Shown here in pieces: positions 7,991-34,933 of a stretch of 64,000 nucleotides of DNA. Made by a program: the position numbers and the translations under genes. Position 1 is the stretch's first letter. Every line of letters starts with the position of its first letter. The stretch lies in the NCBI RefSeq assembly GCF_011045215.1, contig NZ_CP049201.1. The stretch is one strand, 5' to 3'. The notes beneath the pieces were generated by a model. It searched no databases, was not told where the DNA came from, and worked only from the letters and a program-made list of their open reading frames with translations. This stretch comes from Escherichia coli. GTDB lineage: Bacteria > Pseudomonadota > Gammaproteobacteria > Enterobacterales > Enterobacteriaceae.

Positions 7991-8753
7991 GCATGATCTC
8001 CACCATACGCTGCGTCATCCGGACAAAACCATTTTCGATGGCTTGCTGATAATCAATGATCACCAGTGCCGACTCCTCAAAAAGGCCCTGAATTTCAGCG
8101 GGGGCGTGAGCGTAATAGTCTGCAATTCTGCTGAAATTAAACACCGTGTGGCGTTCTGCCGCGCACAGGAGGAATTTTTCGATATCAGGCTCAAGGGACG
8201 CCGTACGTATCCGGCTGACCAGCTCCTGAGTTTTCGTATCGTCGTACAGTTCACTGATATCCGGTTCATCCCCTGACGGCTCATAAACAGGCGTATCAAT
8301 TTTCGTCGTGTACGGCTCATCCTCATTCGCTGTACCTGGCAAAACATCCGTTAATAGTTCGTCAATTTCTGTCGGGCAGAATCCTGTCAGGGAGATATCA
8401 AAATCAGCATTGATTAGGTCCGACAGCTCCATCCGTAACAGATCTTCATCCCAGCCAGCACTCATCGGCAGGCGATTATCAGCCAGGCGGTACGCCTTTT
8501 TCTGATCATCCGTCAGACCAGACAGAACAATGACCGGAACCGAATCCATTTTGAGCGCCTCAGCCGCCATAACACGCCCGTGCCCCGCAATAATTTCACC
8601 CTTTTCATCAATCAGCACCGGATTTGTCCAGCCGAATTGCTTAATGCTTTCAACCAGCTGTGTCACCTGTTCAGGAGAGTGTGTCCTTGCATTGTGCACA
8701 TACGGAGACAACTCTTGTAACAGTCGATAGACAATATTCAATTTTTCGCTCAT
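7965..8753 (-). CDS. ParB-like nuclease domain protein, 262 aa
   Basis: ParB/Srx-type N-terminal domain (…VHNARTHS…IIAGHGR motif); start at the ATG preceded by a GAGG Shine-Dalgarno. Confidence 0.6.
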   Translation of the reverse strand: MSEKLNIVYRLLQELSPYVHNARTHSPEQVTQLVESIKQFGWTNPVLIDEKGEIIAGHGRVMAAEALKMDSVPVIVLSGLTDDQKKAYRLADNRLPMSAGWDEDLLRMELSDLINADFDISLTGFCPTEIDELLTDVLPGTANEDEPYTTKIDTPVYEPSGDEPDISELYDDTKTQELVSRIRTASLEPDIEKFLLCAAERHTVFNFSRIADYYAHAPAEIQGLFEESALVIIDYQQAIENGFVRMTQRMVEIMHGGEEEYA

Positions 8754-9226
8754 ACAACCTCGCTTTATGAATAAAAAACTAACAGCAGCCAGTGGAGAGC
8801 ATTTATCATTAACATTTACAGATAAGATGACGTACATCATTGAAACGCCATTAAGCTATATACCTGCAGCATTTGTAGTTGCACTCCGCAACTCTGCGAC
8901 TACGGTTATAAAAGCATTGGCAACTTTTGCCACCGGCAAATCTTCCATGGATTTCCTCTGCCGGTTTTTTATTTTCGTCGATGCATAACATTGCATTTAC
9001 ATCAATACCGTCTATTGTCATAAGTATGTTGTACCGATGCTCGGGTGATATTGGCGGTCTTCGCCAGCCGGTTCTGTGTAGTTGCTCCCTGTGACCGGTT
9101 TTTTATTTCTCACATTACAGCAGCCCCTCACCAAAGGGCTGCTGTAATGCCTGCTGTTACTCACAAATCAGACCATCATGATCACCGCTCATCCCTGGAC
9201 TGTTCCCGCAGTCGGAGTTTTGTTTT

Positions 9227-11277: not shown

Positions 11278-11349
<72 letters not shown>

Positions 11350-11352
11350 ATA

Positions 11353-11428
<76 letters not shown>

Positions 11429-12036
11429 GTTGGTTCCTCGGGAGTGAGATGAGATGCCCCGATACATAATGTATCATTCCCTCGGAACCACAAAAATAAT
11501 ACTAATAAATAATCAGGATGCAATATTTACCAACTATGTAATTGTAAATTTGTTTGAATAAAAAAATTACTAAACACGCCATACCCCCCTAAAAAGGGGG
11601 TCGTAATAATATAAGTGATACTAAACATCACATTACTAAATACATTGTATTAAGCTGGCGACCCGATGCGTAATCCCTTGATATTAAAAACTCCAAACAA
11701 AATCAGAATGCCATCTAAATACACAAAAAGCTGGCTTCACACCACCCTGTATGTGAACGCAGAACTCATCACCCCACGCGCTTTCGCAGCCAGTACACAA
11801 CCTGTGTCAAACGCTGGCAGATGAACAATGAAACTGCCAGCACGGTCACCTATCTTAGTTCGCGTCTCGCATTCTGCTTGATAATAAGTTTCCCGTTCTT
11901 CTCTTATTGTGCATTTCTCAGTTTATCTGTCAGTAGCATTTTGACATACCAATAATTCCTGTCGAGAAAATCAGTGAGCTAAAAAACCGTATTCACAGCC
12001 TCGGGCACGTTTAACGTACCGCACCACTTTTCGGGC

Positions 12037-12062
12037 GTAAAAAAACCCGCATTAAGCGGGTT
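12037..12062 (-). terminator. rho-independent terminator just downstream of the Q-like gene (tR'-like)
   Basis: acccgc-ttaat-gcgggt stem-loop followed on the minus strand by 7 T; lies about 80 bp after the Q-like stop. Confidence 0.55.
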
Positions 12063-12144
12063 TTCAGGTGTCCATGTCTGCTATACGCCTCGTGATACAG
12101 CTTTACGAAGCGTACCAAAATTGAAGCAGTTTGTACGTAAAAAA

Positions 12145-12687
12145 TCAAGCCATTTTTTGAGCAAATGATTCTCGCATGGGAATGTATAGCGCATACTCAG
12201 CAACAGCCAACCAATTAGCAATTCGCTTTTCGCATGTGCTAAAACACCACTCTGGGTGTGCATCATTTAGCAATTCAGCCATTTTTCGCTTAGTCATCCC
12301 CCGCCCCTCATAGCGTTGCCGGAGAATACAAATCAATCCCGGATGATCCGCCATAACTTCGCCAATAACTCTGTCGATTATTAATGCCTCTGAATCGGCA
12401 CAATGTGCCAGCCAGCTCTTTTGCTTGCCGTTAATCATATCCCGCAAAAAAGCCTCAAGTTCAGGCTTGTCCAGACCTGCTTTTTTCATCCTCCGGAGCG
12501 CCTCGTTAATTGCCGTTTTTGTCAGCTTTTTAGAGGTCAACATCTGGTTAAACATATTCCCTGTCTTACCGCCACCAATATACGACCAGCGCCCCCACAT
12601 ACGCAGTTTTCCCTGAATCCAGACACTTTCCAGCGTAGTGAGACGAAGGTGTTCTCCGCTTTTTCCTGTATTCGTTGGGTAAATCAC
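12145..12687 (-). CDS. putative late-gene antiterminator (Q-like), about 180 aa, GTG start
   Basis: Last gene before a promoter-terminator region, the tRNAs and the lysis cassette; GTG start with AAGGAGG Shine-Dalgarno 7 nt upstream; assignment is positional. Confidence 0.4.
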   Translation of the reverse strand: MIYPTNTGKSGEHLRLTTLESVWIQGKLRMWGRWSYIGGGKTGNMFNQMLTSKKLTKTAINEALRRMKKAGLDKPELEAFLRDMINGKQKSWLAHCADSEALIIDRVIGEVMADHPGLICILRQRYEGRGMTKRKMAELLNDAHPEWCFSTCEKRIANWLAVAEYALYIPMRESFAQKMA

Positions 12688-12974
12688 AAATATCCCTCCT
12701 TTCTCCAGATTTCTTGTGTGCGAAAAACACCTTCTGCATGCATCAGGCGCAATTCTTCTTTGGTGTAATCGATGGTTTTTACTCTCCCGTCGATTAAATC
12801 GTGGCACGAGCTACAGGCAATCGCCGCCTGCATATCGTGTGGTTTTGTCGCTGTTCCACACGTCCCCGCCAGCCTGTAATGTGCCAGCACAGACGTTCCG
12901 GGATTGTGATTGCAGTAGCCAGGAATTCTGACCTGGCACATCTGGCCCCGCGCCGCTTTACGCAAATTCACCAT
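12684..12974 (-). CDS. DUF1364-family protein (YbcO-like putative nuclease), 96 aa
   Basis: Cys-rich motifs CQVRIPGYCN...HYRLAGTCGT...IACSSCHD as in lambdoid YbcO/NinG-region proteins. Confidence 0.55.
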   Translation of the reverse strand: MVNLRKAARGQMCQVRIPGYCNHNPGTSVLAHYRLAGTCGTATKPHDMQAAIACSSCHDLIDGRVKTIDYTKEELRLMHAEGVFRTQEIWRKEGYL

Positions 12975-13585
12975 TACGCAAACTCCAGCAGCTGCGCGGC
13001 CACATTTTCGACTTGTTCCGGAGAGGAAAATTTACGGAACAGGATCCAGTTCCACAGCACATTCAGTACAGATTTATAAACCTGCTGAAACTCGGTTTCG
13101 TCCATATTCGCAAACGCGATTGATTTCGCCCTGCGCCCACGGCTACCATCCGGATAAAAATGCTCGGTGTAAAATCCGGCCTGAATGATTACCCACTCGC
13201 GGAAAGCGTCAAATGACTTAAGCAATGCCGTATCCCGGGTTCTGCGTGTCGCAACTGTATTCAGATATTGCTCTGCGGCTTCGCTCAGAGCTGGCGTATG
13301 TTCCCGGCCTACTGATTCACACAGGTAATCAACGAATCCTGATACCATTTCTCGTTCTCGAGGTGTGATCGCCCCACCGATCGGAGTCCAGTAATCGAAT
13401 CCCAGTTGCAGGAGTTTGAAAAAACGCTTGTGGAATGCGTAGTTACGCACACGCTTAAAGTCTGCGTGTATCCACTCACCTATTTTGATTTGATACAGAA
13501 AATCGCAACTCTCCGGCGTCGCCGGGAGAAGTAATCCGGAAGAGGTTTGTTTGACCAGTTGTATATGCGCCATTGCTTTCTCCAA
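12974..13585 (-). CDS. nin-region hypothetical protein (DUF1367-like), 203 aa
   Basis: ORF in the nin-like block upstream of the Q-like gene; family assignment is a recollection, not verified. Confidence 0.35.
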   Translation of the reverse strand: MEKAMAHIQLVKQTSSGLLLPATPESCDFLYQIKIGEWIHADFKRVRNYAFHKRFFKLLQLGFDYWTPIGGAITPREREMVSGFVDYLCESVGREHTPALSEAAEQYLNTVATRRTRDTALLKSFDAFREWVIIQAGFYTEHFYPDGSRGRRAKSIAFANMDETEFQQVYKSVLNVLWNWILFRKFSSPEQVENVAAQLLEFA

Positions 13586-13632
13586 TAGCGCTGTAGGTTG
13601 CCAGGTGTTCAGGCTGGCTTACGAATTATAAC

Positions 13633-13806
13633 TCATTCCCAAACTACCTTGAAACCGAGCCTTTCCAGGTATTCAATGAATGCCTCGATAGATAAAATTA
13701 CATGATCATCAGGAATTAACGTTGCGTAGATAACTTCCCCATTCTCAACGCGCACAGCATAGAGGCCATTTTCACTAAAAATTTCACGCAATTCTTCGAT
13801 TTTCAT
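13633..13806 (-). CDS. small hypothetical protein, 57 aa
   Basis: Internal ATG (MKIEELREIF...) preceded by an AGGA Shine-Dalgarno. Confidence 0.3.
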   Translation of the reverse strand: MKIEELREIFSENGLYAVRVENGEVIYATLIPDDHVILSIEAFIEYLERLGFKVVWE

Positions 13807-13970
13807 CAGCAGAATCCTTCTGGATAAATAACTTTCCCCTGTTTGGGGGCCATCCCTCTTCTCCCTGCGCGCCAATCAAGTAATGAGATTCTATTTCCCC
13901 CGTAATTAGCCTCAAGAACAACAAATCACAAAAACACAAAAAGCCTGTTTGATTAAAAATAATCGTAACA

Positions 13971-13992
13971 AAAAACCCGTCGAAGCGGGTTA
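13971..13992 (-). terminator. rho-independent terminator downstream of the hok-like gene
   Basis: aacccgc-ttcg-acgggtt hairpin followed on the minus strand by a T-run. Confidence 0.5.
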
Positions 13993-14059
13993 AGTACGGG
14001 GGCGTTGAAGATGCCTGACACATCAGAGGTGGCGGGAGATTTCTCTCCCGCCAGGTCTC

Positions 14060-14197
14060 TTACTCCTCAGGTTCGTAAGCTGTAAAGACAGCGACCTCCG
14101 TCTGACCGATTCGGATTTGTACCTCACAGAGGTCTTTCCTCGTTACCAGTGTCGTCACTATGACGGTTAAACAGATGACGATCAGGACGATTAACAT
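14060..14197 (-). CDS. hok: Hok/Gef-family type I toxin (RelF/HokD-like), 45 aa; not in the supplied ORF track
   Basis: Translation MLIVLIVICLTVIVTTLVTRKDLCEVQIRIGQTEVAVFTAYEPEE has the Hok signature: hydrophobic helix, then LCE...EVAVF...YE. Confidence 0.8.
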   Translation of the reverse strand: MLIVLIVICLTVIVTTLVTRKDLCEVQIRIGQTEVAVFTAYEPEE

Positions 14198-14654
14198 CAC
14201 CTTTTGCTACTTTATAGCCTGCTATGCCTTTCATGCATTCTTGGCTATACTAACCTTATACCTACAACACGAGAGACGCAGAAATGACCGTTCATGGCAT
14301 ATCAACAGGCAGTATCGTTCACTTACGTGAAAAAGATGGAGAATGGCTCGTAGTGCACATTCTTAATGACGACATTGTATATGTCCTCAAAAATGCAGAT
14401 TCAGGTGAAGAAATAAAAGTCACTCTTCAAGACATCAATACACCCAATAAATAATCCCTCCACAATCCCACGGGGGGTATTGTTCTTCTTATCATCACAA
14501 CCGCATCACACCACCAATTGCTCATTGCAGACAACACCCCAGCCATGCTACTCCTAAACGGTTTTATAGTGCTATAGCCCCGGATGTCTGTTGTCGTCAA
14601 CAGACATAACAAGCTAAAATAACAACACTCCCCAACAACGAAGGACTTAATACC

Positions 14655-14942
14655 ATGGCTCAGGTCTATTTTGATACTCTGAAATTCGTTGAAACCCTAG
14701 AAGCCGCCGGAATGCCTGCAGCACAAGCTCGCGCCATATCTGCTGCAGTAAAGGATTCTCACGAAGCGGCAGAAGTCGCTACAAAGCGCGACCTGAACGA
14801 TGTTAAAACTGAACTAAAAAATGACATTGCTGCCATTGATGCAAAAATTGATAAACTCACCCTGCAACTGACTGTCAGATTTGGCGGGATGCTCGTCGTT
14901 GCTGTTGGCGCACTGGCAGCCATCATGAAGCTACCTCTTTAA
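14655..14942 (+). CDS. DUF1640-like coiled-coil protein with C-terminal hydrophobic segment, 95 aa
   Basis: Plus-strand gene inside a minus-strand operon; AAGGA Shine-Dalgarno; followed by its own terminator. Confidence 0.5.
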   Translation: MAQVYFDTLKFVETLEAAGMPAAQARAISAAVKDSHEAAEVATKRDLNDVKTELKNDIAAIDAKIDKLTLQLTVRFGGMLVVAVGALAAIMKLPL

Positions 14943-14973
14943 AAAACCAGCCCTAATGGGCTGGCTTTTGTTA
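14941..14973. terminator. bidirectional rho-independent terminator
   Basis: ccagccc-taat-gggctgg hairpin flanked by an A-run upstream and a T-run downstream on the plus strand. Confidence 0.55.
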
Positions 14974-15050
14974 TCCCCAGCAGAAAATCGAATACACCAC
15001 CAGCGCCACCGCCATCGCAATTCCTGCCGTTGTGAATGCTTCAGGCCAGG

Positions 15051-15413
15051 TCATCGTAAAACATCCTCCACGCTTGTCAGTCCGTTTCGCTCCAGGTAGT
15101 CCATCGCCTTATCCGGCAATTTGCAGTCCGGCTTCGCTTTCCTCAGTTGCCAGGCTAACTGCTTTACCTGCATAGTTAACTCGTCGACCAGACGCTGATA
15201 CCCCACTGGTTTGTATTCATAAAATTTACCAACTGGCGCTGCTGCCAGCGATTGCAGTGCAATTTCCAGAACAGCAATATCCATCTTATATGCGCGAATG
15301 AGGTCATGGTCGATTGTGCCTGGTATGCACAGTCTCTGTGATTCAATAGCCTCCTCTGCGTGGGCTATTAACTGCTCTTTGGTAAACCGTTCTTCTTTGG
15401 TCAAAGTCGCCAT
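15051..15413 (-). CDS. hypothetical phage protein, 120 aa
   Basis: ORF in the nin-like block; no recognisable motif. Confidence 0.4.
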
Positions 15414-15587
15414 TTACTCTTCCACTTCGTCTTTTATTTCGTAAATTGAGTAATTGCAGTGATTAAAGAAAACATCAATTGCCTCGTTTTCTATTTCCTC
15501 AGGAGTCGCATCATCATCCACTTCAAATACATCTTCACGCACGTTACCAACAATCCTCGTTTCGATAACTATTTTGAATTTTCGCAT
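15414..15587 (-). CDS. small acidic hypothetical protein, about 57 aa
   Basis: Internal ATG (MRKFKIVIETR...); start uncertain. Confidence 0.3.
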   Translation of the reverse strand: MRKFKIVIETRIVGNVREDVFEVDDDATPEEIENEAIDVFFNHCNYSIYEIKDEVEE

Positions 15588-15713
15588 TGTCTTACCGCCC
15601 TTTCGGGCGGCCTCCTGATGTTTTGAGGGTGCAGAAATCCCTCCGGTTAAGGATTTAATAAAAATCACTTCTGATTTAAATTTCAGTGTCTTATTGTCAG
15701 TTTGTTTATCGCT

Positions 15714-16025
15714 TTATGCCTGAACCTTATTTCTCATCCATACACAAACCGGGCCGTCTTCCGTGTCATGAATGGAGCCAATAAACCACCCATCACCCTC
15801 TGGTCGTTCCGGCTCCCATGCGGAAATATCAGGACCATCCGCATCCGGATTAAAATCATCTTCATCCATTGCGCGAATGGTCCACTGAAGATTATTCGCC
15901 TTCATCCAGGCATTAAATTCTTCCGTCGAAATATACTCCCGGCCATCACAAAATTTTTCATATTCAGGATGTATCCAGCAGCCATATGCATCACGTTCTA
16001 CCGGCATTTCTTTGATTTCGTTCAT
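15714..16025 (-). CDS. hypothetical acidic phage protein, about 103 aa
   Basis: ORF in the nin-like block; internal start MNEIKEMPVERD assumed. Confidence 0.35.
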   Translation of the reverse strand: MNEIKEMPVERDAYGCWIHPEYEKFCDGREYISTEEFNAWMKANNLQWTIRAMDEDDFNPDADGPDISAWEPERPEGDGWFIGSIHDTEDGPVCVWMRNKVQA

Positions 16026-16038
16026 AACATTAACTCCA

Positions 16039-16221
16039 TTAAAATAATGCAAAACAAATTAACCACACCACTACAACCGATGCTATTAACACCCTGATTG
16101 CAAACAGTGGACTGATATGTCGAAAAGGATTTTCCCAGATAATAAAAGCCGCTGCCAGAAATGCACTGATCAGGAAAACAATAACAAACAGCTCAATTTT
16201 GATTATCCAGAACATATTCAC
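16039..16221 (-). CDS. small membrane protein, 60 aa
   Basis: Two hydrophobic helices; stop codon overlaps the upstream gene. Confidence 0.3.
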   Translation of the reverse strand: MNMFWIIKIELFVIVFLISAFLAAAFIIWENPFRHISPLFAIRVLIASVVVVWLICFALF

Positions 16222-16508
16222 TGCATCGCCTTCTGTAAAATAACCGCATGCCCCAGCTTCTCCGCCAGTGCCAGTTCTGCCCTAGCACCTGCCGACCGCT
16301 GCCAGTCTTTCAGCATGTAAATCGCATCCACGCAGCGAATCATTGCCATGCAAATATCCATGTAGTGCGGCTGCGTCAGTCCGTCCGGAAGTACTGCCGG
16401 ATTTAAGACTGTGTGCCCATCCCGTTTCAGTTCCTCTTCCGCCTTGTGGAACGCCTCACGGTTGAAATTTTCATAGCCCGTCATTGGACCGGCGATATAA
16501 ACCCTCAC
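16218..16508 (-). CDS. DUF4406-like protein (nucleoside 2-deoxyribosyltransferase-like fold), 96 aa
   Basis: MRVYIAGPMTG...N...AF motif typical of the DUF4406 / deoxyribosyltransferase-like family. Confidence 0.5.
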   Translation of the reverse strand: MRVYIAGPMTGYENFNREAFHKAEEELKRDGHTVLNPAVLPDGLTQPHYMDICMAMIRCVDAIYMLKDWQRSAGARAELALAEKLGHAVILQKAMQ

Positions 16509-26629: not shown

Positions 26630-26856
26630 GCGCAGCCACAAAGCTCACAGGAGAAAAACCAGTGCGATACACAAAAATTAAACCATGTCCATTTTGTGGT
26701 TGTCCATCAGTAACGGTGAAAGCCATTTCAGGATATTACCGAGCGAAGTGTAACGGATGCGAATCCCGAACCGGTTATGGTGGAAGTGAAAAGGAAGCAC
26801 TCGAAAGATGGAATAAACGAACCACTGGAAATAATAATGGAGGTGTTCATGTATAA
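26620..26856 (+). CDS. ralR: RalR-like restriction-alleviation protein / type I toxin
   Basis: [48 protein letters not shown] matches Rac RalR. Confidence 0.7.
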
Positions 26857-27037
26857 AATTACCGCCACTATTGAAAAGGAAGGTGGCACTCCTACTAACT
26901 GGACAAGATATTCAAAATCTAAACTAACGAAATCAGAATGCGAAAAAATGCTCTCAGGTAAAAAAGAAGCGGGCGTTTCCAGAGAGCAGAAAGTAAAACT
27001 GATAAATTTTAATTGCGAGAAACTTCAGTCCTGGTGA
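26837..27037 (+). CDS. ydaC: YdaC-like small protein; start uncertain
   Basis: [23 protein letters not shown]...; position between ralR and xis as in Rac. Confidence 0.5.
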   Translation: MEVFMYKITATIEKEGGTPTNWTRYSKSKLTKSECEKMLSGKKEAGVSREQKVKLINFNCEKLQSW

Positions 27038-31338: not shown

Positions 31339-31459
31339 AAAAAAAAGCCGACTCATCAAAGTCGGCGTCGTACGAATCAATTGTGCTATGCAGTAATTCA
31401 AAAAAGGAAGTAAGACAATATGGAGCGCAACGCCCATCGCTTGACGTTGCATTCACCTG
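31339..31459 (-). ncRNA. fnrS: FnrS small RNA
   Basis: Reverse complement reads GCAGGTGAATGCAACGTCAAGCGATGGGCGTTGCGCTCC...GACGCCGACTTTGATGAGTCGGCTTTTTTTT with terminal hairpin; lies between zntB and dbpA as expected. Confidence 0.75.
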
Positions 31460-31555
31460 CAAGAGAGATATTGCCCTGAATGGGTAGAGAGTTTATTGAC
31501 TTCGCTCAAACTTTGCGGCGTTTTTGTATACAGACAGCCGGAAAAATTGCTTTTG

Positions 31556-34837: not shown

Positions 34838-34933
34838 ACCGGCGCAGAGGAGACAATGCCGGATTTAAGACGCGGATGCACTGCTGTGTGTACTGTAGAG
34901 TCTGGCGGATGTCGACAGACTCTATTTTTTTAT
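34838..34933 (+). ncRNA. mcaS: McaS (IsrA) small RNA
   Basis: ACCGGCGCAGAGGAGACAATGCCGGATTTAAGACGCGGATGCACTGCTGTGTGTACTGTAGAGTCTGGCGGATGTCGACAGACTCTATTTTTTTAT between smrA and abgR. Confidence 0.7.

Follow-up and report, generated by a model that had tools for sequence, protein, structure and literature searches.

The hokD-type locus of the window, the whole 64-kb stretch of Escherichia coli DNA that was analysed, is most probably an inert relic of a common prophage hok/sok module (rough probability 0.88). This reading is based on what the locus has lost: a promoter, leader and antitoxin of its own, the ribosome-binding site and the original start codon are all missing, and in addition it carries an early stop codon. 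A deletion of about 200 bp stripped the module of its 5' control half, and in the toxin frame the Shine-Dalgarno sequence is gone, the ATG has turned into ATA and codon 3 reads TAG. Of the old hok mRNA only the 3' two-thirds with their structures are left over, i.e. the coding part for the transmembrane and periplasmic segments, a hairpin, the fold-back inhibitory element (fbi) and the terminator (Table 1). Judging from these lesions the remnant should make no toxin, and with neither a toxin nor an antitoxin to oppose it there would be no post-segregational killing and no prophage maintenance; at most, induction may lead to passive transcription of the locus within the prophage early operon. 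The preliminary description had proposed a role in exactly these two processes, which depend on a toxin that can be expressed and an antitoxin that is unstable; the copy shows neither.

The kinds of damage have a parallel in R1 hok. [quoted passage not shown] Each class of lesion in the window matches such suppressors.

Table 1. Position, strand and basis of the features at the hok remnant and its borders (window coordinates)
Feature	Position	Strand	Basis or remark
Intrinsic terminator of the ancestral hok transcript	13964-13991	minus	terminator scan, alignment
fbi (fold-back inhibitory) element, 3' end of hok mRNA	13998-14010	minus	alignment with intact loci
8-bp hairpin directly 3' of the hok stop	14031-14052	minus	conserved; alignment and folding
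Residual 45-codon Hok/Gef frame and stop (ancestral hokD codons 7-51)	14060-14197	minus	ORF list, Pfam, HokD alignment
mok-like 36-codon frame	14124-14234	minus	ATG 14234, TGA 14124
Disabled first six ancestral hokD codons	14198-14215	minus	alignments, codon table, tblastn
Deletion junction, 17 nt	14225-14241	minus	pairwise and multiple alignments
Small divergent 56-aa ORF (MTVHGISTGS...)	14284-14454	plus	far side of the deletion

The residual Hok reading frame and its start

The 45-codon frame extends from an ATG (14197-14195), preceded by an in-frame GTG at 14200, to a TAA (14062-14060). It encodes the peptide MLIVLIVICLTVIVTTLVTRKDLCEVQIRIGQTEVAVFTAYEPEE, which is letter for letter the translation quoted in the preliminary description. 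The proposed membership in the Hok/Gef family with HokD/RelF as closest relative was confirmed as well: Pfam PF01848 (HOK_GEF) matches the peptide with 75.8 bits (E 1.9e-21, profile positions 2-42 of 42; curated cut-off 22 bits), and 41 of the 45 residues are identical to residues 7-51 of K-12 HokD. The NCBIfam model NF007279 does not discriminate, because genuine K-12 HokD (48.5 bits) stays below its cut-off of 73 just like the 45-aa frame (43.9 bits). The translation has kept the hydrophobic helix, the polar C-terminal domain and both conserved cysteines (VICLT, DLCEV), and each of its four amino-acid changes is found singly in full-length alleles. The identical ORF of strain C5 is deposited in RefSeq as WP_072278258.1 ("Hok/Gef family protein"). 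A tblastn search of the 64-kb window, in which the peptides besides HokD were used as approximate probes only, retrieved no other hok-like sequence.

The frame does not begin where a hok gene begins. We aligned five intact hokD-type loci in hok sense, namely those of phage Rac from E. coli 442/2 (MN652886), the chromosome of E. coli strain R1, the Qin prophage of K-12 (hokD), E. coli M1 and JNE120393. In this alignment the hokD homology of the window runs on for six further codons upstream of ATG 14197, and the tblastn alignment with HokD spans all 51 codons (14215-14063). The 45-aa frame is thus, as judged by alignment, the tail of the 51-codon hokD frame, a point that the preliminary description had missed. 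Within the first six codons, codon 1 has changed from ATG to ATA (14215-14213), codon 3 from CAG to TAG (14209-14207), and a GCG has become GTG (14200-14198). The basic N-terminal sequence MKQQKA of HokD accordingly lies outside the remaining frame, which was found without a hok start codon of its own.

The ribosome-binding site has also gone. The Shine-Dalgarno sequence AGGAGA, which is located 8 nt 5' of the ATG in every intact locus aligned, is missing in the window. In the intact loci the duplex predicted with the 16S rRNA 3' end has an energy of -7.4 to -8.5 kcal/mol and a spacing of 8 nt, compared with -3.3 to -4.3 kcal/mol for the candidate starts of the window, whose spacings of 0, 1, 16 or 18 nt are unusable; the value for ATG 14197 is -3.9 kcal/mol at 0-nt spacing.

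Many prophage HokD-type database entries have a length of 70 aa and begin, in the same frame, 19 codons before the canonical ATG (MLVTYRLPLTDRKVKEKQA-MKQQKA...). These entries probably reflect an extension of the gene call into the leader and not a real product.

The deletion junction and the 5' control half

Two blocks of unambiguous homology delimit the deletion, one pairing the window from 14242 upwards with the M1 locus from 2507 upwards, the other pairing the window up to 14224 with M1 up to 2288. Between them, pairwise and multiple alignments place 17 nt in the window opposite 218 nt in M1. These 218 nt hold the hok promoter, tac, ucb, the mok initiation region, sok/sokT and the hok Shine-Dalgarno sequence, and the region 5' of the intact hok mRNA start (GGGUGCUUG...) likewise belongs to them. 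The gene order of M1 and JNE120393, i.e. the small divergent ORF, the hok promoter and leader with sok, and hok, is preserved in the window. The leader of R1 contains tac, ucb, the mok Shine-Dalgarno sequence and start, and the Sok target, and sok is encoded antisense to this leader (PMC9841398). Leader elements and sok are absent from the window because the leader segment is deleted. According to the alignments, it is a deletion of ~200 bp that took the hok promoter, the leader, tac/ucb, the mok translation start and sok together with its target. Fragments of 4-5 nt at the junction align with the -10 region of M1 and were considered as a retained hok promoter; we treated them as alignment noise.

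Covariance searches led to the same picture. The Rfam model RF01794 (sok) spans the leader of the hok mRNA, whose 5' end is GGGUGCUUGAGG, as far as the hok AUG, roughly 175 nt, and matches just upstream of hok in the strain R1 chromosome (116.1 bits), M1 (111.5 bits), MN652886 (111.1 bits) and JNE120393 (105.6 bits). The M1 match (positions 2274-2449 of that locus) lies within the stretch missing from the window. The model finds nothing in window positions 12000-16500 at E<=1, and at the gathering score it finds nothing either in the full 64 kb or in strain C5, which carries the same allele. Its silence in the window is meaningful only because the same model detects the four intact relatives. 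A displaced copy of the tac/5'-leader motif was found nowhere in the 64-kb window at up to 3 mismatches. Scans revealed neither a sigma-70-like promoter nor a terminator on the plus strand of 14198-14300, and on the minus strand no promoter-like site is directed into the hok remnant. The Sok-like antisense RNA that had been expected in 14198-14300 finds no counterpart there, given the deleted segment, the silent RNA model and the lack of a plus-strand promoter or terminator in the scan.

A mok-like overlapping frame had been predicted for the same region, and an ORF of this kind does exist (Table 1), but its ATG 14234 was created at the deletion junction and its early end results from a CGA>TGA change at 14126. 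No Shine-Dalgarno sequence was found upstream of it and no Pfam match within it. The genuine mok start of MN652886 is located 58 nt upstream of the hok ATG, and the homologous position falls inside the deletion; by position, the frame at ATG 14234 is not homologous to the mok start.

The hexamer TATACT (14246-14251) was weighed as a promoter of an antisense RNA. It cannot yield an RNA antisense to the toxin start, because it is directed away from hok, toward the small ORF. Its sequence is conserved in M1 and JNE120393, and it may represent the -10 element of the 56-aa ORF.

Prophage neighbourhood and spread of the allele

The window harbors a Rac-type prophage with RalA (26855-27033, 217 bits) and YdaU-/YdaV-like replication genes, together with genes for DUF1367 (IrsA-type), YbcO and DUF1133 (Q-like) proteins. 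The hok remnant has the orientation of the replication and nin/Q genes that flank it, and two plus-strand ORFs separate it from the early genes upstream. No hok is annotated in K-12 Rac, just as the preliminary description had stated. The conclusion drawn there, that the locus is accessory cargo, does not follow: K-12 Rac is a truncated cryptic prophage that ends shortly after ydaW, without the whole nin/Q region, and the record of phage Rac (MN652886) shows mok/hok between the replication genes and rem-irsA-ybcO-q, the same position as in the window.

We surveyed 5426 complete E. coli genomes with megablast. The hok body was found at 9096 places in 4517 of them and the leader segment at 8546 places in 4236, while the deleted form is confined to 8, all matching the whole query. 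Among the matches listed outside these eight genomes, the hokD-like ones end at window position 14223. On account of the mok/hok position in MN652886 and the frequency of the leader, hok/sok is normal equipment of Rac-type phages and the copy in the window is a rare broken one. Of the eight genomes, those with host data are all of cattle origin (cow, bovine, bovine faeces, calf).

The broken allele is uniform in its lesions. The same deletion, ATA and TAG were observed in nine of nine other copies inspected (five complete genomes, four IMG/VR contigs). A pattern scan of IMG/VR for window-specific substitutions returned four loci, all with deletion, ATA and TAG, and thus no intermediate allele; in a protein search, full-length alleles share at most two of the amino-acid changes of the window, and none shares all. 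The exact 45-aa protein is recorded on 332 contigs; a variant that differs in one residue is found on 142. Two nin-region backbones carry the deleted allele, one with DUF1367/YbcO/DUF1133 and one of the DUF968 type, which is indicative of spread by recombination between prophages. Coding polymorphisms among the remnant alleles concern ancestral codons 36 (I/T) and 32 (V/I), and both are non-synonymous.

Between 13972 and 14223 we counted 13 lineage-specific substitutions in 252 nt, 12 of them G:C>A:T transitions. An accelerated decay or hypermutation of the remnant does not follow from this pattern, because the intact JNE120393 allele exhibits a comparable load and bias at a similar branch length (10 such changes, 7 of them G:C>A:T). 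On this ground the excess of G:C>A:T looks like a general regional bias and not like a special event. The flanks of the remnant are mosaic and unsuited to a comparison of divergence inside and outside.

Several neighbours deserve mention in their own right. Relatives of segment 14236-14456 with ~75% identity are present in 11 other complete genomes, where they form a small plus-strand ORF that is annotated as hypothetical in several cases. In the two examined, M1 and JNE120393, a relative of the 56-aa ORF is located divergently upstream of an intact 51-codon hok. The frame of this ORF has stayed open despite indels of one and two codons between the window and its relatives; no Pfam or NCBIfam match was obtained for it. 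Downstream of hok, rem (13633-13806, minus strand) is a remnant or fusion whose first 26 residues match Rem and whose rest is unrelated. PGAP classifies rem of strain C5 as a partial pseudogene, and a rem-like gene is intact on the other backbone with the same hok deletion (YC21-F17 and relatives). Upstream, a 95-aa CCDC90-like ORF (14655-14942, plus strand; 30.7 bits, just under the Pfam cut-off) is oriented opposite to the early operon. It is part of a ~500-bp segment that is missing at this position from M1 and JNE120393, and it may therefore be a small inserted (moron-like) gene. Rfam matches in the window comprise RalA (minus strand), FnrS, McaS and two tRNA genes, those other than RalA at 31343-31460 (minus), 34838-34933 (plus) and 11278-11428 (minus). 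In the RalR/RalA pair of Rac, RalA is the antitoxin RNA; its presence means that of another RNA-antitoxin system the prophage has kept the antitoxin RNA at least.

The retained 3' end, alternative readings and known systems

Could the 45-aa peptide nevertheless act as a toxin without a partner? It might be translated from ATG 14197 on early-operon read-through, solely after induction, a stage that would call for no antitoxin, and contribute to membrane damage or lysis timing. The open frame with its transmembrane helix and cysteines, the in-frame ATG (ancestral Met7), the shared orientation with the flanking replication and nin/Q genes and the persistence of the allele on several hundred contigs and two backbones are all compatible with such a role. 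We nevertheless regard it as improbable. ATG 14197 has no usable ribosome-binding site when its duplex energy and spacing are compared with those of the intact loci, the basic N-terminus is lost, the two plus-strand ORFs separate the remnant from the upstream early genes, and both polymorphisms within the ORF change the protein. Moreover, Hok translation is mok-coupled in this family and in R1 needs translation of mok up to the hok initiation region (PMC9841398); the mok initiation region is missing in the window. There is a slim chance that 45-aa Hok is still made from antiterminated early transcripts, either by leaky initiation at ATG 14197 or by coupling to the 36-codon frame, and serves as an antitoxin-free membrane toxin restricted to induction. 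If true, a type I toxin would have come under the control of the phage repressor, replacing control by an antisense RNA.

The 3' end of the old mRNA is retained and invites a second alternative. Its terminator, correctly recognized in the preliminary description, consists of a hairpin with a T run (13991-13974) that falls on the 3' end of the intact hok loci in the alignment, and its stem is one pair shorter due to a G>A change at 13980. The fold-back elements survive only in part: fbi is kept with substitutions at two of its 13 positions (14009, 14001), but tac and ucb are deleted, and with them the 5' partner of fbi. In the intact loci the 5' end GGGUGCUUGAGG is complementary to CCUCAACGCACCC (tac/fbi pairing). 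The 8-bp hairpin shows a compensatory double change from G-C to A-T (14037 and 14046), which hints at a continued structural constraint. The remnant RNA as a whole folds well below shuffled controls (z = -3.6). These structures might have been reused, independently of the toxin, as a terminator of the prophage operon or as an RNA-stability element, and the compensatory change, the folding and the retained terminator would suit this proposal. Strong folding is, however, expected from the hok mRNA ancestry and is no sign of function, so that inheritance suffices without a new role. In two other copies of the allele (L013, L014) the hairpin is altered internally or at its base, and two paired changes among ~17 substitutions could be due to chance (rough estimate ~0.04). 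We thus assign reuse of the 3' end a very small likelihood. Neither this proposal nor that of an orphan toxin is given no weight at all, because of the open frame, the substitutions shared singly with full-length alleles, the contig counts, the two backbones and the hairpin change.

A functional type I system, in which Hok is translated via the mok-like frame, restrained by a Sok-like antisense RNA from 14198-14300 and stabilizes the prophage by post-segregational killing, is next to negligible as an explanation, since, despite the family match and the 3' terminator, several findings speak against it, namely the deleted leader/sok segment, an RNA model that is silent here and exceeds 105 bits in four relatives, the lost ancestral start codon and Shine-Dalgarno sequence with a stop at codon 3, a junction-born ATG 14234 without Shine-Dalgarno sequence whose frame ends after 36 codons, and the lack of a plus-strand promoter or terminator in 14198-14300.

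If the locus is the inert relic proposed here, its biological significance is small and the practical point is one of annotation. The annotated product and the decay of chromosomal hok loci as a phenomenon were already known: hok modules occur commonly among E. coli prophages, the decay of chromosomal loci has been described since the 1990s, and Pedersen and Gerdes 1999 is the source cited in PMC12214031 for the inactivation of the K-12 loci. Collection records name the 45-aa frame "type I toxin-antitoxin system Hok family toxin", and counting such relics as functional systems inflates the toxin-antitoxin content in surveys of prophages and defence systems. As the locus illustrates, live type I loci are told apart from relics most quickly by an RNA model for which intact relatives serve as positive control.

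The comparison with known systems places the copy between intact modules and other truncated loci. The intact modules of MN652886, M1, JNE120393 and the strain R1 chromosome have the same hok body and 3' end as the window and share the prophage position between ydaV/ydaW-type replication genes and rem/irsA/ybcO/Q, but they carry the ~175-nt RF01794 leader and a 51-codon hok with Shine-Dalgarno sequence and ATG, all of which the window lacks. The hok/sok system (parB) of plasmid R1 belongs to the same protein family, and its 3' mRNA architecture is alike by homology via the hokD group. The identity between R1 Hok and the window is only ~50% over 38 aligned residues, an approximate value. R1 possesses functional Sok, mok, tac/ucb/fbi/dcb and post-segregational killing.

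The closest sequence is hokD (relF) of the K-12 Qin prophage, with 41 of 45 identical residues and the same 3' UTR, fbi and terminator. Of the chromosomal hok loci of K-12, all but hokB are considered to have been inactivated through IS elements or rearrangement, hokD through rearrangement (PMC12214031). Both K-12 hokD and the copy in the window are 5'-truncated, have lost the sok/mok leader and reside in a defective or lambdoid prophage, with rem downstream, of which only a remnant is left in the window. They differ in the extent of the damage, since K-12 hokD retains the Shine-Dalgarno sequence (AGGAGA), the ATG and all 51 codons, whereas the window copy has neither Shine-Dalgarno sequence nor ATG and is interrupted by the stop at codon 3. 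They also differ in their neighbours: K-12 hokD lies downstream of relBE and adjoins relE, and the copy in the window adjoins the small divergent ORF.
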